Positions 28,601-45,053 are shown, numbered from the stretch's first letter. The stretch is 64,000 nt of DNA from an uncultured delta proteobacterium (GCA_963845145.1 CAWJQU010000005.1:394256-458255), one strand, 5' to 3'. Numbers and translations: made by a program. Notes: generated from the letters alone by a model not told the origin.

Positions 28601-30088
28601 ATGAAAATCGTATTGATGTCCATGCCCGACGTGGCGCCGGTAATCATGCACACCAGTGCCTTTCACATGGCCAACAACGGCCTTGCTAACATCGCCGCCA
28701 ACCTCGATGGTGAACATGATGTCTATATTATTGACCTGATCCGCAAAAGACGCCGGGTTGTCAACTATGTGACCCAAACGCTGCTTAAATATCGTCCGGA
28801 TATGGTCGGTTTGTCATCCATGACTTGGCAATACGCCACCTGCACGAAACTGCTCAAGCTGATAAAACGCCTGCTGCCGGATGTCAAAACGGTGATCGGC
28901 GGTTATCATGCCACACTGATGTACAAAGAGATCGCAGACTCCAAAGAGGCGGACTGGATCGATTTTATAATTCGCGGCGAAGGAGAAGTGGCCTTTAGCG
29001 CCCTGATCAATGCGGTAGGTGGGCATGGCCGATACAAGGGAATTCCCTCACTCTCCTTTAAAGATGACGCCGGGTTTTGCCACAACCCCAAAGGGGAACC
29101 ACTGGATCTGGCCCAGATCAAGCTTCCCGTCCGGGATAAACGGCGCACGACCAGCGGATACCATGTCATGAACCGCAAGGTCGAGGTGATGGAGACCTCA
29201 CGAGGTTGCACCCGCTCCTGTCATTTTTGCAGCATGCATCACATGTACGGGCGGATCTATCGAACCTTTCCTATCGACCGGATTCTGGCCGATATCGATA
29301 CCATCTACCACCAACGCCATACCCGCCGTATATTTATAACCGATGACAACATGGTTCTGGCGCCAAATCGAGTGATCGAGTTGTGTGAGGCCATTATCGC
29401 CCGGAAATATCGCCGCCTCCAATTCAGCGTCCAAGCGGATTGCATCACCATCTCCAAAAATGAGACCATGGTGCGCAAAATGGCCCAAGCCGGATTTAAG
29501 CTGATATTTTTAGGAATTGAGAACGTCTCTTCCAAAAACTTGAAAACCGCCGGTAAAGGCAATATTGTCAATGCGTCGCGGCAGGCCGTGGCAATATGCC
29601 ACAAATATGGCATCATGGTCCTGGGGGGGATGATATTCGGATTTCCCGATGATGAAGAGGCGGACATTATTGCCAACTATCGATTCCTTAAGGAGATCGA
29701 AGCAGATTCCGCCTACTGCCAGATACTCACACCCTACCCAAAAACCGATTTGCGCCGCACATTGATGGCGGAGGGCCTTGTGACCAACCCAGATAATTTT
29801 ACAAAGTATAACGGCATGTGGGCCAACATTAAAACCCGTCATTTAGATGCCCAACGGCTCCAATACCTCTTTTGGCTGCATCGGCGGAAAGTGTTGGGAT
29901 GGTGGGAACCGTCCAAGCAGGTCCGGGAGCAGGGGAGACTTGCGACATCCATCTGGGTTTATGCATTACGACCGCTACTCAAATTTATCGAGGCCCGAAC
30001 CCAAAAGCGATCAAGCTTGGATGGTCGCTATCAGCAGGACATGCTAAGGTTGGCTGAGATCAACCAATTTAAGGATTTGGAGGCCTAA
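28601..30088 (+). CDS. B12-binding-domain radical SAM enzyme (class B type) no. 1
   Basis: N-terminal Rossmann-like B12-binding module (MKIVLMSMPD...DVYIIDL...PDMVGLSS), then SRGCTRSCHFCS (CX3CX2C). Confidence 0.85.
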   Translation: MKIVLMSMPDVAPVIMHTSAFHMANNGLANIAANLDGEHDVYIIDLIRKRRRVVNYVTQTLLKYRPDMVGLSSMTWQYATCTKLLKLIKRLLPDVKTVIGGYHATLMYKEIADSKEADWIDFIIRGEGEVAFSALINAVGGHGRYKGIPSLSFKDDAGFCHNPKGEPLDLAQIKLPVRDKRRTTSGYHVMNRKVEVMETSRGCTRSCHFCSMHHMYGRIYRTFPIDRILADIDTIYHQRHTRRIFITDDNMVLAPNRVIELCEAIIARKYRRLQFSVQADCITISKNETMVRKMAQAGFKLIFLGIENVSSKNLKTAGKGNIVNASRQAVAICHKYGIMVLGGMIFGFPDDEEADIIANYRFLKEIEADSAYCQILTPYPKTDLRRTLMAEGLVTNPDNFTKYNGMWANIKTRHLDAQRLQYLFWLHRRKVLGWWEPSKQVREQGRLATSIWVYALRPLLKFIEARTQKRSSLDGRYQQDMLRLAEINQFKDLEA

Positions 30089-30140: not shown

Positions 30141-31286
30141 ATGGTCATGAAAAAAGTCTATATCGCCAAAACCGCTATCGCCACTGGATTGGGAGACACC
30201 CTGGAGGACAATTGGCGCCGGCTGAACCAGGGTCAAAGCGCCATCGACATCATTTTGCATTTCAATACCGACCGGCTGCCCTATCACTATGGGGCGTGCC
30301 GGCCGGATCTACGGCAAACGAACGATGTCAATTTTACCTGCGCTTTGATGCAACGTGTCTTGGACCGCATTAAACCGATCTCAACAAACACAGACATTAT
30401 CTGGACGGGCATCAAAGGCAATGCCCAAGCTATTGAGCATGGAAAGAAAAATGCCCATTACTACCTGCCGACCCACTACCGGCAATGGGTGGCGGACACT
30501 ATGGGTATAACCGGACAGGGGATGGAGATCAATGCGGCCTGCGCGGCCGCCACGGTCGGCCTGGCCATTGGAGCTCAAAAAATTGCCCTGGGGAACGTGG
30601 ATCAAGTTCTGGTTTGTGGTGCGGACTTGGTGAGCCGATTTGTCCATACGGGATTTTCTGCATTAAAGGCCCTGACGAAGACCGCTTGTCGGCCATTTGA
30701 TCGCCAGCGTGACGGGATGTGCCTGGGGGATGGGGCTTTTGCTATACTGCTTACCAGTGAAAAAACCTTCAAAAAAGAGACTCGGGCACCCCACGTGCGA
30801 TTGGCCGGATGGGGTATCTCCAACGATGCCGTCCATATCACCGGCCCGGCCCGAGACGGTCGTGGATTGACCTCAGCCGTTCGGGCTGCCCTGGACATGG
30901 CTGCCACACCTCCCGACGAGGTTGAGGCCTTTTGCGTTCACGGCACCGGAACCGTATTTAATGACGCCATGGAACTGGCGGCGATCAAAACCCTATTCGG
31001 CGACCGCCGCTTTCCGGCTTTCTCCATCAAGGGGGCCATCGGACACACTTTGGGCGCGGCGGGTGGAATCGAAACGGCCCTCTGCTGCCAGGCATTAGCA
31101 AATCAGTGCGTACCGCCCACAATCGGCTTGAAAGATCCTGAAGAGAGGGCGATGGGTCTCGTAGCAAACACCGCTCAACCGTTTGGGGGCCAAAACATTT
31201 TGACCACCAATTCCGGTTTTGGCGGAGTGAACGGTGCTCTTATGCTTCAGATGGACGTTCAAAGGGATAAGCGAGAAATCAAATAA
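30141..31286 (+). CDS. Beta-ketoacyl-ACP synthase (Cys-His-His), short form
   Basis: EINAACAAATVG (Cys), VHGTGTVFND (His), IGHTLGAAG (His). Confidence 0.85.
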   Translation: MVMKKVYIAKTAIATGLGDTLEDNWRRLNQGQSAIDIILHFNTDRLPYHYGACRPDLRQTNDVNFTCALMQRVLDRIKPISTNTDIIWTGIKGNAQAIEHGKKNAHYYLPTHYRQWVADTMGITGQGMEINAACAAATVGLAIGAQKIALGNVDQVLVCGADLVSRFVHTGFSALKALTKTACRPFDRQRDGMCLGDGAFAILLTSEKTFKKETRAPHVRLAGWGISNDAVHITGPARDGRGLTSAVRAALDMAATPPDEVEAFCVHGTGTVFNDAMELAAIKTLFGDRRFPAFSIKGAIGHTLGAAGGIETALCCQALANQCVPPTIGLKDPEERAMGLVANTAQPFGGQNILTTNSGFGGVNGALMLQMDVQRDKREIK

Positions 31287-31295
31287 CAGGACAAC

Positions 31296-31988
31296 ATGTT
31301 AATTAATAATATCGGTGGCGGTTGGGTCACAGCAGAAAATTACGGTCAGATGAGAAACGGTACCCGGCCGGTGCTTCATCCCGGTACGCCTAAGCTGCCT
31401 CCAGCCCAAGATCTGTTTTCTCCCCTCCCCGCCCGGTTCCGTCGCTTTGACCTTTTTACCCAGCTGGGATTAAGCGCCATCGCCTTGGCGTTAAAGGATG
31501 CGGGCATCGCCGAAAGTGAACATTCGCGCTCCATCGGCATTGTGATCTCCAGCGTTTACGAATGCTTCGAAGTCGACCTGGCCTATTACCAGACCACGCT
31601 AGACGAAGATGGCCTGTTTGCCAGCCCCAACCTGTTTTCCTACACGTTGCCGGGCATCGTCACCGGTGAGGCTGCGATTTATTTCAAATTAACCGGTCCG
31701 ACATTTACGATGGGTGATGACACTACCTCCCGAGGGATGCCAGCCCTTTTGGCCGGTGTGGATATGATTCGATCCGGTATGTGTAAAACCGTGATATGCG
31801 GTTGGTTGGATAGTCCGGGTGAAATGCTTGAAACCAAGCTCAAAGATGTCGACCCAGTTTGTGGGGCCGTATTTGTCGTCTTGTCCGCCGAATATCAACA
31901 GCGTGTGCTGGCACAACTTCGAATCGAGAATTCAGCCCTTCTCACTGCATCCGGAGCCAAACTTGAATCAATCCAGGACCTTTGCTGA
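31296..31988 (+). CDS. KS-N-terminal-like partner protein lacking the active-site Cys (chain-length-factor-like)
   Basis: 230 aa. FRRFDLFTQLGLSAIALAL, ASPNLFSYTLPGIVTGEAAIYFKLTGP align by eye with 48463..49572 and with the 57.0-58.1 kb partner. No Cys at the nucleophile position. Confidence 0.65.
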   Translation: MLINNIGGGWVTAENYGQMRNGTRPVLHPGTPKLPPAQDLFSPLPARFRRFDLFTQLGLSAIALALKDAGIAESEHSRSIGIVISSVYECFEVDLAYYQTTLDEDGLFASPNLFSYTLPGIVTGEAAIYFKLTGPTFTMGDDTTSRGMPALLAGVDMIRSGMCKTVICGWLDSPGEMLETKLKDVDPVCGAVFVVLSAEYQQRVLAQLRIENSALLTASGAKLESIQDLC

Positions 31989-32706: not shown

Positions 32707-33993
32707 TCAAAAGGTCTTTGTTTTCCAAAAAACCTGCGGAATTTTCAATTTAAGTTGTTTGGCAAAGCGAATCAGTAGCAAAAAGACCATCATAATCATG
32801 ACCAGTTCAGTCGATTCCTCCCACCAGTCAGCCCAGCCCTGATTTTCTCTAAAGGGCAGCATTAGGCTAAATCTGAAAAAGGCATAGCTTGAAAATCCGA
32901 GGCCGATAAAAAACGGTAACTCTGCTTTTTGCACGCCTGTTTTGCCTCTCCGAAGCCAAATAAAAGATGCCATAAAAGCAATGGCTCCCAAGATCGGATA
33001 AATCCGGAATTCAAAAAAGAGGTTCCAGAAATCCTTATCCCAGAGCACGTTAGATGCGAATACGGGCATAATAATCTTAAATGGCCTTAAGGGCATCGTT
33101 ACAGGGATCAAGGCAACAAAGGCAAGGGCAGGGACCATGAAAAGCGCCAACCGATGGAGACCGCAATTCCCGGAATTATTTTTCCAACACGTCTTACAGA
33201 GTCTTTGGAGCAGGCAAGGGCGATCTTGGTCCCTATAGTGGACAATCCGTTCATCAAAGAAGAGAAACAACCCCCACTCGAGGAGAAAGAACATCAACAC
33301 CATGCCTAAACCATGGATGAATTCGAGCTCCGGGCTACTATTTGAGGCAATCAGGTAATTAAGGGTGCAGGCATTTTCCCCTATAAAAAAGAAAACCATT
33401 GCGTTGCGGATCAAAACAAGATCCCTTTCCTTTCTTCTCCATAAGATGAGGGCGATCACGAAGCTCAAAAGCACATAGATAGGCTTGATCACAAAAGCGG
33501 CCGCCGTAACGGCTAACTGGGTAAGTAAGGATATCTCAACAATGGGCGGTTCAAGCGCGTTTGCGATAGAACCACTTCCCGTTGAGGGCGAAGAGGGGTA
33601 GCCCAAGCGCTGCCATGCCTGCATCCCTTCTCTGAGATTATAGACATTAGGATATCCATGGGACATGATTGTGGCCGCCGCAATCTGGGATTTCCAGCCC
33701 GAATAGCAGACCGTGACGATCTGCCTACCCTTGGCCTGCGGATGTTTCTCAAGAAAGCCATCAATATTGGCTGGATCCAACAAGATAGCCCCGTCAATGC
33801 GGCCTTTCTCAAAGGCAGAGTGCTCGCGGATATCCAGAACAAGGGGATTTGATCCACTGGATAACGCATTTTTCAACTGCTCCGACCCAATGGATTGGAT
33901 CCCTATGAATCGGGCCGACATATCCTGACAGCCGACTAATAAGAGTGTAATGAGTAGGAAAAAGGTCCATTTTATACGAATTGATATATCCAT
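32707..33993 (-). CDS. Lipoprotein-type rhodanese domain fused to a polytopic membrane domain with a Cys cluster
   Basis: LLLVGCQD lipobox-like, rhodanese active-site loop VTVCYSGWKSQ, then about 8 TMS and CLLQRLCKTCWKNNSGNCGLH. Confidence 0.65.
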   Translation of the reverse strand: MDISIRIKWTFFLLITLLLVGCQDMSARFIGIQSIGSEQLKNALSSGSNPLVLDIREHSAFEKGRIDGAILLDPANIDGFLEKHPQAKGRQIVTVCYSGWKSQIAAATIMSHGYPNVYNLREGMQAWQRLGYPSSPSTGSGSIANALEPPIVEISLLTQLAVTAAAFVIKPIYVLLSFVIALILWRRKERDLVLIRNAMVFFFIGENACTLNYLIASNSSPELEFIHGLGMVLMFFLLEWGLFLFFDERIVHYRDQDRPCLLQRLCKTCWKNNSGNCGLHRLALFMVPALAFVALIPVTMPLRPFKIIMPVFASNVLWDKDFWNLFFEFRIYPILGAIAFMASFIWLRRGKTGVQKAELPFFIGLGFSSYAFFRFSLMLPFRENQGWADWWEESTELVMIMMVFLLLIRFAKQLKLKIPQVFWKTKTF

Positions 33994-34256
33994 ACACGAT
34001 CAAACCTAAAGTGCGCTTATACCGCTTCACAATTTGGCCCGGTACACCCCTTGATCACCTGCCGTAGGGTGAATGCGATAATGAATGTGAGGTGAAATAT
34101 ATCTCCATAGAACGCCTGCGGCTCCATGAGGTCATGACACTCTCTTTCAGAATTTGCAAACTTTCCGCCACTTGCGCTACGGATAGTTAAACAGTTCCAA
34201 CATTTACGATAGGTGACGGCATCCGACATTTCCCCGCAATCGGTTCTTGATCTTTT

Positions 34257-35630
34257 TTAACCGATCCTTAATAAGCCTAGCGGCAGGGGCAAGGCTGGGA
34301 TGTCGTGGATGGTGGTTTTCCGTTTTGACCGGGTCAAAATCAATCCATTGGCATATTTCTTAATTTGAGATAGTTGTTTGGGCCGAACCTGGTTTGTCCA
34401 TTTCACTTCTACCGGCCAAAAACGGTTTTTTTGTACATAGGCAATGTCAACTTCACCTTTGGCTTTGATATAGAATGTCGGAAAACGCCTTTGATAGTGC
34501 GTTACGGCGCATGCCTCTACCAACGTACCCATCTGTTCCGAATCATGAAACAGCTGTTTGACCTGATCTTTAAAAGGATCTTCACAGGGCCACAACCACG
34601 ACTTGACGGCATGATAAATGAATGGGTCTGTAAAAAATACTTTTTTAGCCTTCTTCGGTGCTGCGATTAATTTATCCTCAATTAGGGCCGATTGGACAAA
34701 CACCGCATCCATGGACTCCAGCAATGCCATGTAATCCGCGATGGTTTTGGGGTGATCGATGGATAGATCTTTTGAAAGGGCATTCCAGGTGACCTGGCTT
34801 CCGTACCTTTTGATTATGGCCTGTAATATTTCTATAAGAAAGTGTTCCTTTTTATGCCGCTTGAGCACATCTCCCCTGATCCAATCGCTATAAGTCGAAA
34901 ATGTGCCGGGTAATATTTTCCCATAGGCGGCCATATCGTTGATGGCGGTTAAAAAACCGCCATGTGATAAGTATAAATCAAATTCAGTATAAAGCTGGTC
35001 CAAAAGGGAATCGGGAACATGCGCATCGTCATGCATAAGTCGGTTGATGTTATCAGCCGAAATGATCTTGTGAAGGGCTACAAATTCCATGAAGCTGAGT
35101 GGAAGTAGATGAAAATCCACCACTCCCGATTTCCCCCGTCTTCCCGGAAACCGCATCCTAGCCTCTTTGATAATTCCCACATCAGAACCGGTTACGACCA
35201 TGACGGTCTGCTCAAGCATACCGGCGTCTGCAAGATATTTAATTCCTTTGTCCCAATCTCGGATGTAGGTAACTTCGTCGAGTATCAGGTAGTTCGTCGA
35301 TGAAGTAGGGATCGTTTTTATTATGTCTCCAATGAGCCTGACAAGAGAGTGATGATCATCAATCAATTCACCGGTTAAATAGGTGACGCATCGAGGCTGG
35401 GTGCCAAGATCGAGTAACTGGGCCATCCACTGTTTAATAAGGGTCGTTTTTCCAATCTGTCTGCCACCGCTCAAGCTATAAATACCCGGATCGGCAGTTG
35501 GCAATCGGTCGAGAGTGGAAGACCGGTGGATCAATGGCTGCCTGGCGAGTAGCCTCAAGTGTGGATCGAGGTCTTCAAAACCTTCACGGCTTTCCAGATG
35601 GGTATTGTGAGGCAAGAATCTTGGGTCCAT
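34257..35630 (-). CDS. COG1373-type AAA ATPase (AAA_14 + DUF4143)
   Basis: GGRQIGKTTLIKQW Walker A, LILDEV Walker B. C-terminal ...EVDIAYV....WPVEVKW is restriction-endonuclease-like, typical of DUF4143. Confidence 0.75.
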   Translation of the reverse strand: MDPRFLPHNTHLESREGFEDLDPHLRLLARQPLIHRSSTLDRLPTADPGIYSLSGGRQIGKTTLIKQWMAQLLDLGTQPRCVTYLTGELIDDHHSLVRLIGDIIKTIPTSSTNYLILDEVTYIRDWDKGIKYLADAGMLEQTVMVVTGSDVGIIKEARMRFPGRRGKSGVVDFHLLPLSFMEFVALHKIISADNINRLMHDDAHVPDSLLDQLYTEFDLYLSHGGFLTAINDMAAYGKILPGTFSTYSDWIRGDVLKRHKKEHFLIEILQAIIKRYGSQVTWNALSKDLSIDHPKTIADYMALLESMDAVFVQSALIEDKLIAAPKKAKKVFFTDPFIYHAVKSWLWPCEDPFKDQVKQLFHDSEQMGTLVEACAVTHYQRRFPTFYIKAKGEVDIAYVQKNRFWPVEVKWTNQVRPKQLSQIKKYANGLILTRSKRKTTIHDIPALPLPLGLLRIG

Positions 35631-35648
35631 TCTTAAAACCTTCTGTAG

Positions 35649-35696
35649 TTTTGTATATTAGTCAATGAATAAATTTATTCATTGACTAATATACAA
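35649..35696. promoter_or_regulatory. Perfect 48-bp palindrome (24+24) 19 bp upstream of the ATPase start codon
   Basis: tttgtatattagtcaatgaataaa / tttattcattgactaatatacaaa verified base by base. Contains TTGACT on both strands. Confidence 0.9.
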
Positions 35697-35787
35697 ATAA
35701 ATGTGCCCTGTCAATTCGCTTTATAAAATTCTCTCGCTGCACATATTGCTTGGCGACCGTAACCCCGTGGGTTACATTCAGTTAATC

Positions 35788-35856
35788 ATGATAAAATCCT
35801 TTAAACATAAGGACTTGGACAAAAATATTTTTCCACGGAAAGCAAGAAAGGTATAA
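35788..35856 (+). pseudogene. higB: Truncated HigB (RelE-superfamily killer) toxin remnant, 22 codons
   Basis: MIKSFKHKDLDK matches the conserved HigB N-terminus (MIKSF.HKgL), then a premature stop. A 7-bp-stem palindrome gtaaccc-cgt-gggttac lies at 35759..35775 just upstream. Confidence 0.5.
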
Positions 35857-35859
35857 AAA

Positions 35860-35982
35860 ATGCGAAGAATGATTAGGCGCCCAACACATCCGGGCAATAT
35901 AATTAAAGAAGACTATCTTTTGCCTCTATCCATTACAATTAAAAATATGGCTGCAACGCCCGGTAACAAGTACGTCACTTAA
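35860..35982 (+). pseudogene. higA: Truncated HigA antitoxin remnant, 40 codons
   Basis: RRPTHPGNIIKEDYLLPLSITIKNMA matches the HigA N-terminus (P.HPGeiL.Ee.L.Plg.s...lA) but stops before the HTH is complete. Confidence 0.5.
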
Positions 35983-36593
35983 AAGAACTTGTGAAGCTTC
36001 AGCCAACACACTGGTATTGAGTTGAACCGACGTTACTATAGATGGTAAGGTGAAAAGAGAGGATTGTTGGACACAGAGCATTGCCACCAGAACCCTGGCG
36101 TTCGTCGAGGCAGTTAGAATGCAGACGCGCAGCTTAGCAATCAGTATTTCAAAATCTTTGAAATTTTGAACGATATTCGGAAGGTAACAGTCTTGTGTTT
36201 TTTACGAAAATTTTTCGAAATGACCGCTGTTTTGATAACCAATTGATAGGTTATTTCATCAAAGGACAACATTGTATTTTCGAGTAGGGATTTAGCCTTT
36301 TGAACTTTCAGGAAGCTTTAAGCTACGGAACCGATATGATAGGCCCCGGCATTATGATGAAAGCGCTGAAAATGGATTAAAGAAAATCCCACGGATATCA
36401 AAGAAGAGGGTGAAATATTCGACAGGAAAAAATAGGGACGTCTATGATTATTTGCCTTTTAAAATACCTCAAATCAATTCAATCTTCTAACGGAAAGCGA
36501 AACATTCCCCTTGACCTCGACCACTGGTCCAGCATAGCCCTACAAATAATATCCTACTGGCTTGCCCAAACATCAAACACCGGACCCAATCCA

Positions 36594-37589
36594 TTATGGC
36601 CTTATCTCAACAAGTGTACCATTGGGCACTAGCCGTTCAATCTCCTCCATCTCTTCGTCCGTAACGGCAATACACCCTTTGGTCCAATCGGTTTGTGCAT
36701 GAAAAGAACCCGCCCAGGAAAAGCCATTTTTAATACCATGAATCATGATATCTCCACCTGGGGAAACACCCAGATTTTTGGCTCGCTTTTTGTCTGTCTC
36801 GTTGGGATAGGAAATACGAAGCGATAAGTGGTAGGCACTACCCCTGTTTCTCGATTCGATGGTGTAGGTTCCCTCCGGGGTTTTGTTATCGCCCTGCCTT
36901 TCTTTCGGGCCAACCGGGTTTCCCCCCAGGGCTATTCTATAGGTTTTAATCACCTCGCCCCTTGAGAACAGCGTCAACTGTCGCGCTTTCTTTTCTATCA
37001 GAATTTTATCTGCCGGTCCCGTCCTCAGTTCGAAAAGCTTTTGCTCTATCGTTTCAATCTTTTCTATGAGTGCGATATTCTCATTCTCTTTGTCTTTAAC
37101 CTCTTGGCGGGAAATCTCGATCTGTGTCCGCTGCGCGGCAATAGTTTTATCTTTGAAGATAACATTTTGGATTTGATGTATCATCACCTGGCTGTCTTGC
37201 CTGTATTCGCTAACCGGATAATCCTTTACGATTTTCTGAAAGCACGCCAGCGCTTTCTGATAGTCTTTTTGTTCGTTCCCAGGATGGGCATGAATAATGC
37301 CCATCTCAAAAAGAACCCTGTCTGCGGTCTCAGGATCTTTTTGAATGAGTTGCTCGTATTTTCTAAGCGAAGCATCGTATTCTCCCTGGTTGAAAAAATC
37401 GTTTGCCTCTTTGGAGATCAACCGGGCCTGATGCCCGTCATCAATGGAACGGCATCCGAATATCAAAATAGTTGTCAGTAGGGTGATGTAAACGAAGAAA
37501 AGGCGAAGATTCTTAACCAAACATCCCCGCCTTTTGCCTACATCTGTCTTGGTGCTTGTTGTTGACGTACCTGATGATTGCAAAACCAA
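36594..37589 (-). CDS. L,D-transpeptidase (YkuD fold) lipoprotein with an N-terminal TPR/coiled-coil region
   Basis: ILIFGCRS lipobox-like. C-terminal IMIHGIKNG...DWTKGCIAVTDEEM catalytic His/Cys motif. Confidence 0.75.
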   Translation of the reverse strand: MVLQSSGTSTTSTKTDVGKRRGCLVKNLRLFFVYITLLTTILIFGCRSIDDGHQARLISKEANDFFNQGEYDASLRKYEQLIQKDPETADRVLFEMGIIHAHPGNEQKDYQKALACFQKIVKDYPVSEYRQDSQVMIHQIQNVIFKDKTIAAQRTQIEISRQEVKDKENENIALIEKIETIEQKLFELRTGPADKILIEKKARQLTLFSRGEVIKTYRIALGGNPVGPKERQGDNKTPEGTYTIESRNRGSAYHLSLRISYPNETDKKRAKNLGVSPGGDIMIHGIKNGFSWAGSFHAQTDWTKGCIAVTDEEMEEIERLVPNGTLVEIRP

Positions 37590-37639
37590 TCCTCTTACGG
37601 CTCTATTCGCAATGCATTCAATACAGAATGGTGAAAATA

Positions 37640-37678
37640 AAAGGAAGTGGCAGCGCTTTAAGTCCTCCCACTTCCTTT
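37640..37678 (-). terminator. Rho-independent terminator of the Lpp-like gene
   Basis: 11-bp stem aaaggaagtgg / ccacttccttt. On the minus strand it is followed by tattttcac, 6 nt after the stop codon. Confidence 0.6.
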
Positions 37679-37683
37679 CCGGT

Positions 37684-38010
37684 TTACTTCTTCATTGATT
37701 TCTTGAACACAGCTTCAGCCTGTTTTGCTTTTTCCTCCGCGATTCGCTCCTTTTCAGCGGCAATTTTCTCTCTTTCTTCCGCCCTTTTTTCAGCGGCCTC
37801 AGCGCGAACCGTCGCGTCATTTGCTTTCATCAAGGCTTCATCGGCTGCGGCCTTGGCAGCCTGGGCATCCATAGCTGCCTGATCCGCTTTGGCGCTGATT
37901 GCCTTTTCACGGGCCTGCATCTGTTCAAGATCGCCTTTAGTTGCACAACCCCCAAGGGCAAAAGCGAGAGCAAGCATCACTGTGATCATCAAAAGACTTT
38001 TTTTCATCAT
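37684..38010 (-). CDS. Small Ala/Glu/Lys-rich coiled-coil lipoprotein ending in Lys-Lys (Braun Lpp-like)
   Basis: MMKKSLLMITVMLALAFALGGC lipobox. Mature part is heptad-like (AKADQAAMDAQAAKAAADEALMKAN...). C-terminus ...FKKSMKK. Start taken at the internal Met (38010) rather than 38046. Confidence 0.65.
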   Translation of the reverse strand: MMKKSLLMITVMLALAFALGGCATKGDLEQMQAREKAISAKADQAAMDAQAAKAAADEALMKANDATVRAEAAEKRAEEREKIAAEKERIAEEKAKQAEAVFKKSMKK

Positions 38011-38113
38011 GTAAACAACTCCTTTCTCTTCGGTTTGTATTACCATAACAACGGCTTAAGAAGCGCCGCGTTACATCATAAGAAATAACCCCGTTGGCAA
38101 ACTGTTGGCCGGG

Positions 38114-39508
38114 CTATTTCTTCTCTACAGGTTCGACCAATATTCCGTCTATTTCCAAGTCTATTTTGAGGCGTTTCACTGCGTCTTCGGCCTCGCTTAT
38201 ATTATTGAAAGGGCCGGCGAGAACGCGGTGTTTGCCGATAGCCGACAACACCCTCGCGGGGATTTGTGGGCCCTGATGGTTAATCATTGCGGTTAGTCTT
38301 TGAGCCTCAACCTTGTCTGGAATAACAGCGGCCATAACATACCACGCATCTGTTTTGAGCTCCGGTACTTCCGGTTTGCCGTACAGCTTGTCCGGGTGCC
38401 TTAGTCTTATAGGCTCCGCAACACCCGTTGCACCTCCATGGCGGATCTCTGATAGAGGAACCGGGATGCCGCGAACTTCGGACACGATTTTCTTGACCTT
38501 ATTCCAGTCAAACGTGCTTCCCAACCTCTTTTCGATCTTTTTCAATTTCGCATAGGCCTTCTTCAACTCAGCGTTGCCTGATGCTGCAGGGGGCGTATGC
38601 GCTTCCATGTAAACCACCCCATCCCGTTGACCTATGAGATATGGCTGGTTGACAATTCTCACAGGTGTTTTTACCGGGGTGCTTTCGAAAAGCCGCTTAA
38701 TGTCTTCCGGATAGAGTCTTATGCAGCCGTTGGTTGACCTGAGGCCGACGCTGGCCGGTTTATTTGTACCATGGACCAAATAACTTGGCTTGCTTAAATA
38801 GAGAGCGTGTTCTCCCAATGGGTTCAGAGGTCCCGGCAGAATTTTGTCCGGCAGGGGATCTCCCTTTTTCCGGTGATCTTTAGCGATCGAGGCAGGCACA
38901 TACCAGGTCGGCCGGAACTTCTTGCGCCGTATAGCCATTCGACCCATGGGGGTGGGCCGCTCCGGGGTACCGACACCGATCGGGTAGGTCGATACGGCCA
39001 ACTGGTTGCTATCTCTTTTAAAAAAGAAGATCCTCATAGCAGCCAAGTTAATCACGATACCTTTTCTGCGGGTGTCCGGCAAAATAAAGCTCAGAGGCAA
39101 AAGGACACGTTCTCCGGCTTTGGGCACCCATACATCAACCCCCGGATTGGCTGAACTGACTGTATTGACTCCCAAGCTGTAGTGTCTCGCAATATCCGGC
39201 AGCGTATCCCCCTTTTTGAGCCTGACGACCGCCAGCCGGCCAATGACGTCCTCCCCTTTTTCAACAATAAAATCATTTCGTTCGATCTCATTCTCCAGAT
39301 GGCGTGAGACCCGCAGGTCCACCAGTCCTTCCCTCATAACCGCACAACCAGGGAGAAATAAGATACACATCAATAAAATTGCAGGATGAAGCCTGTTTAA
39401 TATGGGCGACAACCTAATAATTCGGCGCAGGGTCATGTAAACTATCTCGTTTAATGAAGAAAATTTAAAAACCATCTTACGGCAAAACCGGATTGTATTG
39501 ACGCGCAA
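38114..39508 (-). CDS. L,D-transpeptidase with LysM and C-terminal SPOR domains
   Basis: LysM: LKKGDTLPDIARHYSLGVNTVSSANPG. YkuD: YLVHGTNKPASVGLRSTNGCIRLYPEDI. SPOR-like: WYVMAAVIPDKVEAQRL...VLAGPFNNISEAEDAVKRL. The true start may be the Met at 39436. Confidence 0.8.
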   Translation of the reverse strand: MRVNTIRFCRKMVFKFSSLNEIVYMTLRRIIRLSPILNRLHPAILLMCILFLPGCAVMREGLVDLRVSRHLENEIERNDFIVEKGEDVIGRLAVVRLKKGDTLPDIARHYSLGVNTVSSANPGVDVWVPKAGERVLLPLSFILPDTRRKGIVINLAAMRIFFFKRDSNQLAVSTYPIGVGTPERPTPMGRMAIRRKKFRPTWYVPASIAKDHRKKGDPLPDKILPGPLNPLGEHALYLSKPSYLVHGTNKPASVGLRSTNGCIRLYPEDIKRLFESTPVKTPVRIVNQPYLIGQRDGVVYMEAHTPPAASGNAELKKAYAKLKKIEKRLGSTFDWNKVKKIVSEVRGIPVPLSEIRHGGATGVAEPIRLRHPDKLYGKPEVPELKTDAWYVMAAVIPDKVEAQRLTAMINHQGPQIPARVLSAIGKHRVLAGPFNNISEAEDAVKRLKIDLEIDGILVEPVEKK

Positions 39509-39727
39509 GGATCAATTCCAACGCAAGAACAGTATTACATATCAAGATTCGCCGATATATTCAAAATTAAGCTTTTATAAAGAAAAATAGAGATCACTGT
39601 CAATCCGCTTTATATCAAATGATGGGATACCAATGTTGAAAATAACATTGTATGTCCAGAGGAAAGCATAAATCCTAACGTCACATAAATGCTTGGACGC
39701 CCCAATTTTTTCTCAATTTTTTCCAAC

Positions 39728-40114
39728 TTATTTGTAGGCCTGTTCGATCGCTTTTTGCGCCGCATTCATGATTACGACACTGCTGTTCGTCGCACCGGAC
39801 ACTACGTCCACCCGAGTTGACTGTTGCGCCTTGATTCTTTGAGGGATGACGGTGTTGGCCCTGGCACCTTTCCAGGACGAAAAATGCCTGACCAGTTCCA
39901 CATTTTCGATACGACTTTCGACAATGGTGACTTTTACCACAGCGCTGTTGGGCCCATTGCGGTAATGGCCTTTATAAACACCATCTTTTAATGGATGTCC
40001 TTCAAAATCGGCGCCAATCATCAACGCTGTCTGGCAGCCGGCCAGCAGCAGAACAATGGCAAGCAAACTAAATCGGATGTATTGCATATTTCTACCTTGA
40101 TTGGGTTTTGGCAT
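39728..40114 (-). CDS. FMN-binding-domain lipoprotein
   Basis: LLLAGCQ lipobox. VDVVSGATNSS (FMN_bind SGAT motif). Confidence 0.7.
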   Translation of the reverse strand: MPKPNQGRNMQYIRFSLLAIVLLLAGCQTALMIGADFEGHPLKDGVYKGHYRNGPNSAVVKVTIVESRIENVELVRHFSSWKGARANTVIPQRIKAQQSTRVDVVSGATNSSVVIMNAAQKAIEQAYK

Positions 40115-40165
40115 ATGGTGTCTGTTTATAACCTTTTGAATTTTCTGAATAGTGCTGATCTGAGA

Positions 40166-40363
40166 TTAGTCGTGAATATTTTTGACTCTCCCCACGAGCC
40201 CGTTTTCCAAGCGAACCTTGATCCCGTGTGGATGGGTGGCAGACTTTGTCAGGAGGTCCCGGACAATGCCTTCGGTGAGCTTTCCGGTTCTCTGATCTTT
40301 TTTTAACACAATGGAAACTTTCAGGCCGGCAACAATATCGACTCTTTTGGTTCCGTCAGTCAT
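40166..40363 (-). CDS. ywbE: YwbE-family small protein (DUF2196)
   Basis: MTDGTKRVDIVAGLKVSIVLKKDQRTGKLTEGIVRDLLT.S..HPHGIKVRL.NG.VGRV is the conserved YwbE sequence. The listed N-terminal extension to 40429 runs into a repeat element and is rejected. Confidence 0.75.
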   Translation of the reverse strand: MTDGTKRVDIVAGLKVSIVLKKDQRTGKLTEGIVRDLLTKSATHPHGIKVRLENGLVGRVKNIHD

Positions 40364-40388
40364 ATGGCAATTCCTTTTTTTAAACCCT

Positions 40389-40542
40389 GATGGCTTCGTA
40401 AAAAGCCCAATTACTGCGTTGCGCTTCATCCCGTCGTGATTGCGGCGTACGAAAAGTACGCCTCATCACACGGGATTCGCGACGCCTTGAACTTGGCCTT
40501 TTTTCTTTGCCATCCCTTTTGATGACTTTTTACGTTTTCATC
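40389..40542. mobile_element. MITE-like 154-bp element: imperfect 17-bp terminal inverted repeats, long central hairpin, flanked by a 6-bp direct repeat
   Basis: Ends are gatggcttcgtaaaaag (40389..40405) and ctttttacgttttcatc (40526..40542). AACCCT is present at 40383..40388 and 40543..40548. Central hairpin 40428..40476 has the inner stem ggcgtac-gaaaa-gtacgcc. Confidence 0.6.
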
Positions 40543-40831: not shown

Positions 40832-41506
40832 TCAAGGTCTTTCCGCAAGCCAGATAATCCGCTTGCCGCCTTTTCCGGATTTGCGCGCACGAACAGTCAC
40901 GCTTTCCGTCTGGAATCCGCACTGTACAAGGCGACGCGTAAAGGCCTCATCGGCCTCGGATGACCAGACAGCTAAAATCCCTCCGGGGCAAAGGGCGGAA
41001 AAGGATGTTCTCAAACCGGATCTGGTGTAGAGGCGGTCGTTATCTTTCCGAGTAAGCCCTTCAGGACCGTTGTCGACATCAAGGAGTATCGCATCCCATA
41101 TGGATTTGCTTTTCCTGATGGTTTGGCCCACATCTTCTACTATAACAGATACCCGATTGTCATTTAGTGGTTCTCCTGCGAGGTGCCCTAAATGTTCCCG
41201 GTTCCATCTAACGACTGCCGGTATCAGCTCGGATACGGTGATGCGTGTATCCGACGCAGAATATTCAAGCGCCGCCGCCAGGGTATAGCCCATGCCAAGC
41301 CCGCCTATGAGAATACGACAGCCGGTTTTTCGTTTAATACGATTGCATGTGAGCTCCGCCAGTGCACCTTCGGATCCTTTAAGACCGCTGTTCATCAACT
41401 CAACCCCCGAGGTTCGGATCGAAAACGCCTTACCTCGCCTCAGCAGTGTGATTTCTCCTTTCTGGCCGGGTATTTTAGACCGATCTAGTTTTTCCCAGGG
41501 GATCAC
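40832..41506 (-). CDS. Spermidine-synthase-like class I methyltransferase-fold protein
   Basis: ILIGGLGMGYTLAAAL (SAM/dcSAM glycine loop), WDAILLDVDNGP block. Confidence 0.6.
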   Translation of the reverse strand: MIPWEKLDRSKIPGQKGEITLLRRGKAFSIRTSGVELMNSGLKGSEGALAELTCNRIKRKTGCRILIGGLGMGYTLAAALEYSASDTRITVSELIPAVVRWNREHLGHLAGEPLNDNRVSVIVEDVGQTIRKSKSIWDAILLDVDNGPEGLTRKDNDRLYTRSGLRTSFSALCPGGILAVWSSEADEAFTRRLVQCGFQTESVTVRARKSGKGGKRIIWLAERP

Positions 41507-41562
41507 CTTCTTCTCCTCACCTGATATTCAAACAACATATTCTGCATTTTCCCTTTTCATCT

Positions 41563-42219
41563 TTAATGTATCTTCTGGAGCAATATGACATCATTTGAAA
41601 TTAAGTATAGCTTAGCATTATACCGCTGGGCGATGTATTCAAACGTGGCCCGACGATAAAAGCACACATGGGTCATATCCCGAATATAATGCCATCGACT
41701 GAAAGCGTTTAGGTCAATCACCCGCTTAGTCATAATACCCAGCCAACCGCCCGGTTTTAACATTTTAAATAAGTCTGTGAAATCTTTATAGGGAGTGTGC
41801 AAATGCTCTACGACTTCAGTGGCACAGATGAAATCATATTTTTTAAAAAACACAGACGGGTGATCGAAGTAAAAGGGGTCGTAGAGATCCACCTGGTGAC
41901 CTTGTTTTTCTAATATAATCGAGATGGTTGGGCCTGGGCCGCAACCAAAATCCAACCCCTTTTGTTTTGGCGCCAGCTTATCCAAAAGGGGGTTACTTAA
42001 TCGAGACAGAAAATGACGATAGCCTTCATCCTCGGGATTATTTCTATGTAAATCATACGTTGCCTTTTCATCCTCGGCACTTAGCCGGAATTGCGTGGGG
42101 ACAAAGATCAGCATGCAATGAAAACAACGTAAGTAATTCCTTCTTTCATCCATAAAAAATAAACCTACGTCTTCACTTCTACACAAAGGACAATAGGACT
42201 TATCGCGTTTGATTTTCAC
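41563..42219 (-). CDS. Class I SAM-dependent methyltransferase with an N-terminal Cys4 ribbon
   Basis: CPLC...CFHC, then GLDFGCGPGP (motif I) and the GGWLGI post-motif. Confidence 0.7.
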   Translation of the reverse strand: MKIKRDKSYCPLCRSEDVGLFFMDERRNYLRCFHCMLIFVPTQFRLSAEDEKATYDLHRNNPEDEGYRHFLSRLSNPLLDKLAPKQKGLDFGCGPGPTISIILEKQGHQVDLYDPFYFDHPSVFFKKYDFICATEVVEHLHTPYKDFTDLFKMLKPGGWLGIMTKRVIDLNAFSRWHYIRDMTHVCFYRRATFEYIAQRYNAKLYLISNDVILLQKIH

Positions 42220-42466: not shown

Positions 42467-43735
42467 TCAGGGCGCTGAAGCCGAACGTCCAAACGCTTTT
42501 TTCGCCAGTGTCCGGTTTCGGGGCCGGAAGGTATCGTCCGCCATCTCTTTTCGAATCACCTGTTGAAACAACTTGAACATTTTTACTTCCTGGGATTCAT
42601 CGGTATAGAAAGTATCCCAGGCGTATTGGAGCAATTCTTGTAATTTTTCCGGCGTCATCTGTTTGGGTTGGTAAACGACCTTGTCGGCGGAGTAGTCGTT
42701 CCAATCAAAGGAGAAAATCCGATTCGCCTTTTTATAGTCTTCGTATACCCGTGTGTGTGGAAAAGGTGTCAGGACAGTGAACTCGGCCAGATCCAGGTCG
42801 ATTTCCAATAAAAAATCAATCAAACGACGAATGTCGTCCTCGGTGTGCTCATCCAGGCCCAATAAAATTGTGCCCTCCACGGCGATACCGTGGTCATGGT
42901 AACGCTTGATTCGCTCCCGAATATAGTCCGAGGTGTCAAAGACGGCCTGATAAACATACCAGGCCCCTGCCTGGGCCGCCAGATCAAGCACTTCGGGATC
43001 ATCTTCAATGGGGTGGCTGCACCATTTCTTTTTAAGGGGAATCATCTCCCGAAACAGATCCTTTTCCCATTGGGTATCCTGGGCCAGGGAGTTGTCGACA
43101 ACAAAGAGACGATTGTTGTCGATGCCGGCCATTTCTGCGACGGCTTTGTCGATGGGGCGCGGTCGAAATTGGCGACCACCCAGATAGGAAACAGCGCACG
43201 GGTAACAATTGTACCGGCAGCCCCGGGAGGCGTGAACCAAGTCCACCATCTGGACGCCTCGATAATTGTACAGATCGCGATTGAGAATCTCCCGGCGGGC
43301 CGCTCCCACGGTTTCAATGGGAGGGCGGTCTTCCATATAATCGTAAACTTTTTTGAGTTCCCCATTAGCAAAATCGGCCAATATACGACCCATACGCCCT
43401 TCGGCCTCTCCCAGAAAAACCGCATCCGCATGGGTCGCCGTCTCTTCGGCATGCAACATGGTGGCAATGCCGCCGAAAATAACCTGGACGCCCTTTTTGC
43501 GGTATTTATCGGCAATCTCCCAGCCCCGTTTCACCTGCACGGTCAGCATCATGGAAATCCCAACCAAATCCACGGGATCATCAAAATCGATGGATTCCAC
43601 GTTTTCATCGATGAAAGTCACCGCCACCTCATCAGGAAGGGCTGCAGCGAATACCACGGGGCCGTGGGGCGGTAAATGAAACTCGGTCTGACGGTCGAGT
43701 TTGGGCCATTTGGGATATATAAGTTTAAATTTCAT
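42467..43735 (-). CDS. B12-binding-domain radical SAM enzyme no. 2
   Basis: N-terminal B12-binding-like module (VTFIDENV...DLVGISMM), ASRGCRYNCYPCA (CX3CX2C). Confidence 0.85.
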   Translation of the reverse strand: MKFKLIYPKWPKLDRQTEFHLPPHGPVVFAAALPDEVAVTFIDENVESIDFDDPVDLVGISMMLTVQVKRGWEIADKYRKKGVQVIFGGIATMLHAEETATHADAVFLGEAEGRMGRILADFANGELKKVYDYMEDRPPIETVGAARREILNRDLYNYRGVQMVDLVHASRGCRYNCYPCAVSYLGGRQFRPRPIDKAVAEMAGIDNNRLFVVDNSLAQDTQWEKDLFREMIPLKKKWCSHPIEDDPEVLDLAAQAGAWYVYQAVFDTSDYIRERIKRYHDHGIAVEGTILLGLDEHTEDDIRRLIDFLLEIDLDLAEFTVLTPFPHTRVYEDYKKANRIFSFDWNDYSADKVVYQPKQMTPEKLQELLQYAWDTFYTDESQEVKMFKLFQQVIRKEMADDTFRPRNRTLAKKAFGRSASAP

Positions 43736-44036
43736 TGTAAATCAGTCGCCTCGTTGTGAAAGATTTAACCGCGAAAATCGAGCGGTTGGCGGGTTTGCCT
43801 TGGCTCATTAATACGAATGATAGCCGGCCGGGTCAAGCCATTTAGTCGGTTTACCCGTTGGCCTGAGTCACACCCCGCTTGGCGCGGCAGGAACCGGCAA
43901 ACCGGCTATCCGGCCAACCAGACCAATCTCAAGCATTGATTTTTTCCAAGAATTCTGATCTATATACTCACTTTTCATTTCGTTGGTACGATACAAAACG
44001 CATGCGAAAACTCAAATTAAACGCATCGAAAACATC

Positions 44037-44960
44037 ATGAAAAATATTCTGGTCATTTACTATTCACAATCGGGCCAGCTAAAAGAGATTCTGGACTCGC
44101 TTTTGGCCCCGATCATAAAAAATGACGGAATTGAAATCACTTTTGAAGAGATTTTACCCGACCCGCCCTACCCGTTTCCGTGGACCTCCCGAACTTTTTG
44201 TGACGCATTTCCGGAATCTTTTCAGGAAATCCCATGTGATATTAAGCCCTTGAAAGCGGATCCGGATAAACCGTACGACCTGGTGATCTTGGCCTACACG
44301 GTCTGGTATCTGGCACCGGCCATACCGATCAGCGCTTTTTTGCAATCAGATGATGCCCGCCACCTGATTAAGGATCGACCCGTCGTGACGGTGATTGGAT
44401 GCCGCAATATGTGGCTTTTGACTCAGGAAAAAATAAAAAAACGGATATTCACCTTGGGCGGGCGATTGGCGGGAAATATCGTTTTTACCGATCGCACCCC
44501 CAACCTGATCGGGGTCGCTACCATCGCACACTGGATGTTCAGCGGTCGCAAGGACCGGTTATGGAAAATCATGCCCAAGCCCGGCGTCTCAACCAAAGAT
44601 ATTCGCAATGCCGGCCGGTTCGGCCTGTTTCTTAAAGAGGCGATCGCCAACGTGCCCTTTCAATTGGATCAAACACAGTTGAATCAACTGGGTGCCACGC
44701 GCGTCGTCCCTGCTTATATTCTTTTTGAACAACGCATTCAGAAAATTTTTAGCATCTGGTCTAAATTTATTCGTCAGAAAGGTGGCCCCGGCAGCCCGTT
44801 GCGGAAAAAACGGGTTCGGGCATTTTACTACTATCTTTGGGTCGCGATATTTGTTCTGGCCCCGCTGGCCACGGTGCTGTCATTTGCCGTTCGGCTGCTA
44901 AAAAAAGATAAAATCCAAAGCGCTGTCGATTATTATTCACAAAATAAGCTCAAAGCCTGA
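44037..44960 (+). CDS. Flavodoxin-fold protein with a C-terminal TM helix; candidate DarA-like (dialkylresorcinol pathway) protein
   Basis: MKNILVIYYSQSGQLKEIL flavodoxin-like start, C-terminal helix YYYLWVAIFVLAPLATVLSFAV. Sits immediately upstream of a FabH-type KS, as in darAB pairs. The DarA assignment is from memory of the family. Confidence 0.5.
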   Translation: MKNILVIYYSQSGQLKEILDSLLAPIIKNDGIEITFEEILPDPPYPFPWTSRTFCDAFPESFQEIPCDIKPLKADPDKPYDLVILAYTVWYLAPAIPISAFLQSDDARHLIKDRPVVTVIGCRNMWLLTQEKIKKRIFTLGGRLAGNIVFTDRTPNLIGVATIAHWMFSGRKDRLWKIMPKPGVSTKDIRNAGRFGLFLKEAIANVPFQLDQTQLNQLGATRVVPAYILFEQRIQKIFSIWSKFIRQKGGPGSPLRKKRVRAFYYYLWVAIFVLAPLATVLSFAVRLLKKDKIQSAVDYYSQNKLKA

Positions 44961-45053
44961 CCCATGGTGCAAAGGCCCCGGGAAAGAACCAGGAAAAAAC
45001 CATATAATTCAACTTATTAATCCACTTTTAAACCGCAATGGACAAAATAAATA

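Follow-up and report, generated by a model that had tools for sequence, protein, structure and literature searches.

Three dissimilar class-B-type radical SAM enzymes in a conserved lipid-type gene cluster of an uncultured deltaproteobacterium

The stretch CAWJQU010000005.1:394256-458255 of an uncultured delta proteobacterium (assembly GCA_963845145.1), analyzed over its whole length of 64,000 nucleotides and called the window below, carries three genes for class-B-type radical S-adenosylmethionine (SAM) enzymes, rS1, rS2 and rS3, within a locus of fatty-acid-type genes. The source genome, of a sulfate-reducer type, has 5.03 Mb in 19 contigs and is 93% complete. Domains were assigned by Pfam thresholds and NCBIfam curated cut-offs, and folds by comparison of AlphaFold2 models with the PDB. 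The three genes, in window coordinates, are the following:

28601..30088, + strand: rS1, class-B-type radical SAM protein of 495 aa (Pfam B12-binding 79.2 bits, Radical_SAM 62.7 bits)
42467..43735, - strand: rS2, compact 422-aa radical SAM protein that starts with a Rossmann module (Pfam sub-threshold, AlphaFold2 model)
58083..59507, + strand: rS3, TIGR04072-type B12/radical SAM protein of 474 aa (NCBIfam, Pfam, AlphaFold2 model)

All three open reading frames (ORFs) start with a Rossmann module and continue into a radical SAM core with a CX3CX2C motif, just as the first-pass annotation, made from the sequence alone, had described them. The motif reads CTRSCHFC at residue 203 in rS1 (C203-x3-C-x2-C), CRYNCYPC at residue 173 in rS2 (C173-x3-C-x2-C) and CRYRCIYC at residue 219 in rS3 (C219-x3-C-x2-C), and it was kept in 359 of 360 database homologues. 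Concerning class B membership, CX3CX2C was present in all three, the Radical_SAM Pfam match being sub-threshold only for rS2, and so was an N-terminal Rossmann module with a G-x-S-x-residue motif, albeit weaker in rS2. This motif is located at the lower face of cobalamin, where Trp76 of TokK is the residue nearest to cobalt (PMC9204698). The whole genome contains eight ORFs combining a B12-like domain with CX3CX2C and at least 19 stretches of B12-binding domain; in a placement simulation, the chance of three of the eight falling inside 31 kb was p ~0.006. The other five genes of this type have no neighbors homologous to the genes of the cluster.

The placement of the three genes was confirmed as well. 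rS1 is flanked by a PlsC-type acyltransferase (27755-28558) on one side and by an active ketosynthase (30141-31286) on the other, the start codon of rS3 (ATG, 58083) shares bases with the stop codon (TGA) of a Cys-less ketosynthase partner ending at 58086 (ATGA), and rS2 is divergent from a DarA-like gene across a gap of 247 bp. The first-pass annotation had considered all these positions telling, which does not hold for the last one: DarA/DarB adjoin rS2 in a single locus out of 80, and their adjacency is specific to this genome. It had also called the three genes paralogous. This is true at the superfamily level, whereas close paralogy was ruled out by a pairwise identity of about 22-23% and by the tree (maximum likelihood, 61 cluster-associated and in-genome sequences), in which rS1, rS2 and rS3 form three separate clades, each with 100% support in the SH-like approximate likelihood ratio test (SH-aLRT). 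The nearest in-genome relatives of rS1 (C5:1040341) and rS2 (C5:1075301) are both located outside the window. Overall, each of the three genes is a fixed and non-redundant part of a type II synthase/anchoring/export cluster that is conserved in many Desulfobacterota, and they are not copies of one enzyme.

The evidence for this comes from related loci, on all of which the window genes were mapped: 145 were fetched, 24 for rS3, 41 for rS1 and 80 for rS2. The neighbor counts cover 80 rS2, 23 rS3 and 41 rS1 loci, many of the rS2 loci ending at contig ends. Altogether 221 genomes were compared, of which 201, sampled evenly from the phylum, served for co-occurrence. Most of the 80 rS2 loci yielded a canonical supercluster of three blocks, of which L067, L069, L075, L079, L105 and L157 are examples. 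With KS standing for ketosynthase, CLF for the Cys-less partner (chain-length factor), ACP for acyl carrier protein and DH for dehydratase, and with letters as in the gene list further below, the blocks are rS5-rS4-ACP-DH-rS3-CLF_D-KS_D-ACP, DH-FabG-LolA-hyp218-rS2 and CLF_B-KS_B-rS1-PlsC-KS_A-ACP-LpxL-GT2-FakAB-4HBT. In canonical relatives such as L067, all three radical SAM genes fall within 15-25 kb.

The dehydratase, FabG, LolA and hyp218 genes stand next to rS2 in 59-69 of the 80 loci (LolA in 69, hyp218 in 68, FabG in 64). rS3 is a neighbor in 42 loci and rS1 in 25, and in 60 the 10 kb around rS2 include some KS or partner. The contiguous arrangement KS_D-CLF_D-rS3 was found in 42 of the 80 rS2 loci, and a KS or partner within 10 kb of rS3 in 18 of 23 loci. 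PlsC adjoins rS1 in 22 of 41 loci, and a KS or partner is present within 10 kb in 16; the closest relatives (e.g., L066-L070, L074, L075 and L079) preserve the order rS1-KS_B-CLF_B, and in 11-13 of the 41 rS1 loci, as well as in many of those for rS2, the 4HBT, FakAB, GT2 and LpxL genes are kept upstream of KS_A-PlsC-rS1. The link of the three enzymes to fatty-acid-type genes, which the first-pass annotation had proposed and would have given up had orthologues elsewhere never shown it, is therefore real and conserved in both synteny and co-occurrence, with KS, ACP and acyltransferase genes nearby in many loci.

In the even sample, rS2 occurs in 24 genomes, rS3 in nine, all nine with rS2, and rS1 in seven, all seven with both rS2 and rS3. 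Within the sample the phyletic nesting is strict, with no rS1 outside the genomes that have rS3 and no rS3 outside those that have rS2. The distribution is patchy, which is consistent with loss or horizontal transfer; in the window's own order, five other sampled families (G040, G078, G112, G145 and G176) have no orthologues of rS1, rS2 or rS3. Cultured carriers include Desulfosarcina widdelii PP31, strain NaphS2 and Hydrosulfovibrio ferrireducens.

In distant clusters, rS2-like and rS3-like genes of only 30-40% identity stand side by side, the stop codon of one often overlapping the start codon of the other, together with KS/CLF, GT2, LpxL, LolA and MMPL genes. At times, one or two more class-B-type genes stand in tandem with the pair, and in the tree these extra genes form further clades. 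Since rS2 and rS3 are adjacent again at such low identity, they form an old gene pair, and the KS_D/CLF_D genes and the LolA block have come between them in this lineage. Four class-B-type radical SAM genes in one short operon were seen in L146 (2336-10463; genome G186) and L153 (8321-16480; genome G053), three of them directly in tandem, 3-5 nt apart, with FabG and a ketosynthase downstream; this variant of the cluster type is even denser in radical SAM genes.

Membership in families of well-defined non-lipid function had been named by the first-pass annotation as the finding that would speak against its proposal; by the NCBIfam cut-offs, none of rS1-rS3 scored as such a member. For BchE (TIGR02026, cut-off 481), rS1 reached 169.8 bits and rS2 43 bits, with rS3 unlisted. 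HpnR (TIGR04367, cut-off 650) gave 124, 31 and 55 bits and HpnJ (TIGR03471, cut-off 578) gave 106, 45 and 77 bits for rS1, rS2 and rS3, respectively. With Tes (NF045702, cut-off 450), rS1-rS3 were unlisted, and only rS5, which has no B12 domain, gave 27 bits. The TsrM-type model (TIGR04428, cut-off 500) gave 88.7 bits for rS3, and the AprD4 model 29-72 bits against 500, with rS2 at 29. Membership in the BchE, HpnR/HpnJ, Tes, TsrM, AprD4, KedN5, PhpK and RiPP (ribosomally synthesized peptide with post-translational modification) methylase families was rejected, all scores being below the curated cut-offs. The RiPP methylase models matched rS1 weakly, and MgmA (9ccb) ranked near the top of the sequence and fold matches of rS1, rS2 and rS3 alike.

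rS3 is the only one of the three that reaches TIGR04072, 'lipid biosynthesis B12-binding/radical SAM protein' ('rSAM_ladder_B12'), with 362.3 bits against a cut-off of 360 bits, missed by rS1 (89 bits) and rS2 (42 bits), and its orthologues are named accordingly by NCBI. The second NCBIfam match was BzaD, with 144 bits against a cut-off of 450. In the 484-aa ORF from 58053, Pfam gave 77.1 bits for Radical_SAM and 53.5 bits for B12-binding; the start at 58083 is preferred because the relatives all begin at that Met. The family profile of rS3 matched TsrM over nearly the full length (E 2.7e-56), and the AlphaFold2 model (predicted local distance difference test, pLDDT, 87) has a Rossmann plus barrel layout with TsrM as the best fold (template modeling score, TM, 0.84; root-mean-square deviation 3.8 A). 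The motif G62-L-S-I-R66-N-I-D, invariant in the family as G-x-S-x-R66-N-x-D, places R66 on Arg69 of TsrM (Gly65-x-Thr67-x-Arg69). Only this Arg69 feature is shared with TsrM. The Glu273 of TsrM, which ligates the unique iron and blocks both SAM binding to the Fe-S cluster and radical chemistry (PMC8992657), is not kept: its position is Thr in rS3 and A/T/V/I across the family, and thus an ordinary radical initiation is possible for rS3. Orthologues in Desulfobacterota are 45-66% identical.

A 15-bp tandem repeat of 2.9 copies at 58376-58419 encodes a low-complexity insert, DKNRPDQNRPGQNKTGQN, in the cobalamin domain of rS3. The insert (residues ~98-120, of which 102-117 are disordered with pLDDT below 50) splits the TIGR04072 match into two stretches; most orthologues (~449 aa) lack it, and the closest, P0241 with 459 aa, has a shorter version.

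rS2 is the slowest-evolving of the three, with the shortest tree branches and orthologues 77-86% identical across Desulfobacterota. No curated NCBIfam model gave more than 60 bits. Its AlphaFold2 model (pLDDT 86) consists of the Rossmann module and a six-unit beta/alpha partial barrel, and the closest PDB folds are AprD4 (TM 0.78, full length), then MgmA and TsrM. The lower-face motif reads G-I-S-M-M63-L-T and is kept in the family. DarA/DarB and the two methyltransferases downstream of rS2 were rejected as its functional partners, since they are missing from 79-80 of the 80 orthologous loci (DarA/DarB present in one, the methyltransferases in none).

The cobalamin motif of rS1 is G70-L-S-S-M-T-W76, conserved in the family as G-L-S-x-M-x-W76. 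In an alignment over residues 65-266, W76 falls on W76 of TokK, whose motif is A-x-S-x-Y-x-W76, although the match to TokK is weak (E 4.6e-14) and partial, rS1 being ~190 residues shorter. rS1 does not meet any NCBIfam cut-off, and its best score is the aforementioned one to BchE; the JGI (Joint Genome Institute) labels of some rS1 homologues as Mg-protoporphyrin monomethyl ester cyclase are an over-annotation. Orthologues in Desulfobacterota are ~60-78% identical. Of 20 checked genomes in which rS1 is solitary or has only PlsC beside it, 18 carry rS2 elsewhere. A conserved context for the solitary loci was looked for and not found, the unrelated neighbors varying among adenylate cyclase/AAA/tetratricopeptide repeat proteins, transporters and a GDSL lipase.

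The three genes belong to one lipid locus, which extends from ~22.3 kb to the window end and onward to ~70 kb in window coordinates. Its other genes inside the window are listed here, together with a block that does not belong to it:

22325-22732, + strand: 4HBT thioesterase (Pfam, NCBIfam)
22735-24459, + strand: FakA-FakB fusion (Pfam, NCBIfam)
24456-25199, + strand: GT2, family 2 glycosyltransferase (Pfam, NCBIfam)
25000-26088 (ORF), + strand: LpxL-type acyltransferase (Pfam, NCBIfam)
26203-26478, + strand: ACP1 (PP-binding)
26497-27732, + strand: KS_A, active (KS domain, Cys-His-His triad)
27755-28558, + strand: PlsC-type acyltransferase (Acyltransferase domain)
30141..31988, + strand: KS_B with an active triad (30141-31286) and Cys-less CLF_B (Pfam, triad analysis)
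32707..40429, no strand assigned: unrelated block (~8 kb) of rhodanese, AAA_14/DUF4143 ATPase, two L,D-transpeptidases, flavin mononucleotide (FMN)-binding protein and DUF2196 (Pfam)
40832..42219, - strand: pair of SAM-dependent methyltransferases downstream of rS2, genome-specific (Pfam)
43983..52660, no strand assigned: DarAB module, an accessory dialkylresorcinol/polyene module of DarA-like protein, DarB, ABC-2 transporter, CLF_C, KS_C, ACP2, BtrH_N/DUF4872 and hyp144 (Pfam)
50768-51034: ACP2, within the DarAB module
52821-53477, - strand: hyp218, rS2 partner (conserved next to rS2)
53474-54121, - strand: LolA-like protein, rS2 partner (Pfam)
54181-54915, - strand: FabG ketoreductase, rS2 partner (Pfam)
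54955-55428, - strand: ApeP-like dehydratase, rS2 partner (Pfam)
55627-55893, + strand: ACP3 (Pfam)
55890-57365, + strand: KS_D, active (Pfam, triad)
57262-58086, + strand: CLF_D, Cys-less (Pfam, triad)
59589-59984, + strand: FabA/FabZ-like dehydratase (Pfam)
60040-60321, + strand: ACP4 (Pfam)
60343-61440, + strand: rS4, radical SAM protein without B12 domain (Pfam)
61470-62468, + strand: rS5, radical SAM protein without B12 domain (Pfam)
62475-63725, + strand: KS_E (Pfam)

On the + strand, the genes from 4HBT to CLF_B make up a first operon and those from ACP3 to KS_E a second one. Past the window end, the second operon continues in conserved order with KS_F, a second thioesterase, a polyketide synthase-type dehydratase and an MMPL-methyltransferase fusion. 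In total, the cluster holds three KS/CLF pairs, three further KS, four ACPs, a ketoreductase and three dehydratase types. The Cys-His-His triad is present in all six KS, and all three partners are without all three residues. Among the cluster ORFs scanned with Pfam, there were no enoyl reductase families, no phytoene-desaturase/amine-oxidase families and no aromatic-starter genes (AMP-dependent ligase, ammonia-lyase, chorismate-lyase); hyp144, hyp180 and hyp218 had no family match. The four ACP genes and the two radical SAM genes without B12 domain (60343-61440 and 61470-62468) had been overlooked in the first reading.

Two segments interrupt the canonical order. The 32707-40429 block splits CLF_B from rS2 in this genome only, and its genes were found in none of the 145 related loci; its ATPase is of the COG1373 type, and its two YkuD L,D-transpeptidases flank a small ORF. 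The DarAB module, with a score of 535 bits for the StlD/DarB family, is inserted between rS2 and hyp218, and its KS_C-CLF_C-BtrH-hyp144-ABC part was found again in the distant clusters L150 and L151.

The FakAB fusion is a single-chain protein of Dak2 (FakA-like) and DegV (FakB-like) parts, 42-59% identical among orthologues and adjoining 4HBT in many orthologous loci. Its conservation in the anchor arm beside the 4HBT thioesterase suggests that the chain is freed as an acid and then re-activated as an acyl-phosphate. The KS_D ORF has 491 aa, with ketosynthase domains stopping near residue 374, and its tail overlaps CLF_D by ~100 nt in another frame, which suggests a frameshift or a homopolymer error at the KS_D/CLF_D junction just upstream of rS3. 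The last gene of the cluster encodes a 1039-aa MMPL transporter with a C-terminal SAM-dependent methyltransferase (C5:461129-464248, equivalent to 66874-69993 in the window); weak homologues of this fusion (24-51% identity) occur in L089, L102, L148, L150 and L151. About 23 kb past the window end, at C5:481446-482795, there is a further class-B-type radical SAM protein of 449 aa (CPYQCTYC) that adjoins an AsnC-type small protein; it has no lipid-gene neighbors and is probably unrelated to the cluster. In the window, no Rfam family, cobalamin riboswitch included, was found at the gathering threshold.

An important question is what the three enzymes do in this setting. The reading that we favor, with reasonable rather than high confidence, is that they tailor the product of the cluster, rS3 and rS2 acting on ACP-bound polyunsaturated chains and rS1 in the anchor arm, probably by C-methylation, whereby both chemistry and substrates are what we infer. 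The cluster would build polyunsaturated chains on dedicated ACPs, because it combines KS/CLF, ketoreductase and dehydratases with no enoyl reductase found; in aryl-polyene and ishigamide-type systems, such gene sets yield polyunsaturated chains. rS3 most likely acts on the ACP-tethered growing chain, since it is co-translated with KS_D/CLF_D and has a dehydratase and an ACP downstream. Of all reactions, a cobalamin-dependent C-methylation of an unsaturated chain carbon would be the likeliest, as the pocket of rS3 is TsrM/BzaD-like and the nearest characterized relatives, TsrM and presumably BzaD, methylate sp2 carbons (PMC12931638). rS2 would probably perform the step before or after rS3 on the same intermediate, or form a complex with rS3. 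The most likely role of rS1 would be to methylate the chain processed in the anchor arm at an unactivated carbon, because it has a TokK-type pocket with Trp under cobalt and travels with PlsC and KS_A. The anchor arm itself (thioesterase, single-chain fatty-acid kinase, PlsC/LpxL and GT2) would move the chain onto a glycerolipid or glycolipid, and, as the analogy to aryl-polyene clusters suggests, LolA and MMPL would deliver the product to the outer membrane.

A number of observations weigh against this reading. The sequence cannot tell methylases from the ring-forming or rearranging class-B enzymes BchE, HpnJ, OxsB and GrsA/B. The TIGR04072 score of rS3 is barely at the cut-off, partly due to the insert in the cobalamin domain. 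rS2 stays below the Pfam cut-offs for both domains, with 28.9 against 32.1 for B12-binding (PF02310) and 25.4 against 29.5 for Radical_SAM, and its use of cobalamin is uncertain, given that its best fold match, AprD4, binds none. rS1 is solitary among unrelated, variable neighbors in ~15 of 41 loci and has the loosest linkage of the three. Neither CobS (PF02654) nor CobD/CbiB (PF03186) was detected in the 93%-complete genome; the organism may depend on salvaged corrinoids, or the cobamide genes may lie in the unassembled 7%. Finally, the heterologous expression of anammox genes from the comparable clusters gave nothing (PMC4790861, PMC10139942).

It is unlikely, albeit far from implausible, that at least one of the enzymes forms C-C bonds or rings (cyclopropane, cyclobutane or larger carbocycles) or couples chain to chain instead of methylating. 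Such chemistry has been proposed for the cobalamin radical SAM enzyme of the anammox ladderane candidates, GrsA/GrsB perform it in archaeal lipids, and class-B enzymes with non-methylating chemistry are known (PMC9204698, PMC13459092). In architecture, the module matches kuste3603-3608 and kuste2802-2805 of anammox bacteria (PMC4790861; bioRxiv 10.64898/2026.05.19.726425), the very name of TIGR04072 points to a ladderane context, a polyene from a synthase without enoyl reductase can be radically cyclized, and five radical SAM genes exceed the usual need of simple methylation. However, Desulfotalea psychrophila, which has a syntenic cluster, contained only polyunsaturated hydrocarbons and no ladderanes (PMC2649909), a phytoene-desaturase-like gene was not found among the cluster ORFs scanned, and the nearest characterized relatives of rS3 (TsrM, BzaD) and rS1 (TokK) are methylases. 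Another question concerns rS2 alone. AprD4 has a Rossmann-like domain and binds no cobalamin despite clustering with class-B enzymes (PMC12931638). That rS2 is likewise a cobalamin-free enzyme, its Rossmann module merely looking like a B12 domain, and that it catalyzes a redox-neutral elimination or dehydration, e.g., at a diol or hydroxyl of the head group or of a hydroxyacyl chain, with only rS1 and rS3 using cobalamin, is doubtful but should be taken seriously: AprD4 is its best PDB fold over the whole protein, the B12-binding match is sub-threshold, and the protein is compact with no C-terminal extension. Against this stand an identity to AprD4 of only 17% with the aforementioned low score for its model, the G-x-S-x-M kept at the position of the cobalamin lower-face motif, and the next best folds, MgmA and TsrM, both being cobalamin enzymes.

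It is quite improbable that the enzymes leave the lipid chain alone and instead modify a pathway protein (an ACP, a ketosynthase or the carrier resembling LolA) or produce a small cofactor, their shared location serving co-regulation only. Class-B protein and peptide methylases do exist (MgmA/QCMT, Mmp10 and RiPP methylases), MgmA is a top match of all three enzymes, and rS1 matches RiPP methylases weakly; yet related loci contain no conserved adjacent precursor-peptide-like gene or RiPP machinery, the scores to protein-modifying families are far below the cut-offs, and every conserved partner is either an acyl-chain enzyme or a lipid transport protein. A chance rearrangement without function hardly deserves consideration. 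The cluster is indeed broken here by ~8 kb of unrelated genes and the inserted DarAB module, and the five aforementioned families of the same order lack all three genes; nevertheless, the linkage is kept in dozens of genomes of several orders, which practically refutes it, and the strict phyletic co-occurrence and the concentration of three of eight such genes within 31 kb point in the same direction.

Returning to the favored tailoring of polyunsaturated chains, a bolder extension can be offered only tentatively and is probably wrong in at least some part. The five radical SAM enzymes and three KS/CLF pairs might make a so far undescribed methyl-branched or carbocyclic polyene-derived outer-membrane glycolipid, in this organism possibly esterified to a dialkylresorcinol as in flexirubin; the lipid would be a common one among Desulfobacterota that reduce sulfate or live syntrophically, and rS2/rS3 would represent the same catalytic core as in anammox ladderanes. 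If true, cultured sulfate reducers would become a tractable model for the unsolved ladderane problem. The anammox enzymes themselves have withstood all experimental approaches, for want of a genetic system and because heterologous expression failed (PMC10139942, PMC4790861).

Among characterized enzymes, TsrM (PDB 6wte/6wtf), the thiostrepton tryptophan C2-methyltransferase, is like rS3 in fold, profile, the G-x-S/T-x-R motif and the Arg under cobalt. It differs in sequence (21% identity), the scores of rS3 to TsrM and BzaD being 89 against 500 and 144 against 450, and in context, which is lipid synthesis for rS3 and peptide or cofactor synthesis for TsrM/BzaD. TokK/ThnK and CysS, cobalamin-dependent C-methylases with pantetheine-linked substrates, provide a precedent for phosphopantetheine tethering (PDB titles, TokK/CysS). 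AprD4 (PDB 6fd2), the radical SAM 1,2-diol dehydratase of apramycin, resembles rS2 in size, two-domain layout and fold; it differs in sequence and in binding no cobalamin, while rS2 keeps its G-x-S-x-M and has no aminoglycoside genes nearby.

At the level of the cluster, the gene content is also aryl-polyene-like in architecture. Shared with aryl-polyene and flexirubin clusters are KS/CLF, ketoreductase, dehydratases, the lack of an enoyl reductase and ApeP/ApeI-like matches, as well as PlsC/LpxL-type acyltransferases, GT2, 4HBT, LolA-like and MMPL proteins, with DarA/DarB as in flexirubin. The differences are the five radical SAM genes and the aryl-starter activation genes (AMP-ligase, tyrosine ammonia-lyase), which were not found among the ORFs scanned here. 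To our knowledge, classical aryl-polyene and flexirubin clusters have not been described with cobalamin-type radical SAM enzymes.

The second relative is the extended type II fatty acid synthase (FAS-II) cluster common to Kuenenia and some Deltaproteobacteria, first described in 2009 (Rattray, PMC2649909). Such 'ladderane-type' clusters comprise kuste2802-2805, kuste3603-3608 and kuste3335-3352 of Kuenenia stuttgartiensis with counterparts in Desulfotalea psychrophila, Geobacter and Pelobacter (PMC2649909; Javidpour 2016, PMC4790861), and genome-mining tools tag the type as 'ladderane' in many non-anammox phyla (PMC9902471), while its product was never identified (PMC2649909, PMC4790861, PMC10139942, PMC9902471, PMC13459092). 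KS, inactive KS and cobalamin radical SAM enzyme are common to kuste2802-2805, kuste3603-3608 and the present locus, with ACP and FabZ in kuste3603-3608 as well (PMC4790861; bioRxiv 10.64898/2026.05.19.726425), and the anammox pair amxFabF2/amxFabFmut was shown to act as a heterodimer (bioRxiv 10.64898/2026.05.19.726425). The run ACP3-KS_D-CLF_D-rS3-dehydratase-ACP4 fits the make-up of the anammox operons, as compared with published gene lists, and the pair of radical SAM genes without B12 domain is also shared. In contrast to the ladderane-type clusters, the present locus had no phytoene-desaturase-like gene among its scanned ORFs, and it has three different class-B-type enzymes, an anchoring/export arm (PlsC, LpxL, GT2, FakAB, LolA and MMPL) and, in this genome, the DarAB module.

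Overall, the locus is another case of a known cluster type, not a new kind of system, and its value is that of a well-annotated example and a pointer to tractable hosts, with rS2 as a marker in about one-eighth of the sampled Desulfobacterota genomes and cultured strains among the carriers. What may be new in detail is that the three cobalamin environments differ from one another, that the phyletic nesting in the sample is strict and that the rS2/rS3 pair is ancient; the environments and the pair, along with the sp2-methylating relatives of rS3, provide testable hypotheses for enzymologists. Compared with its anammox counterparts, the ladderane-like module of KS, inactive partner, ACP, dehydratase and cobalamin radical SAM enzyme sits here inside a much larger conserved system.

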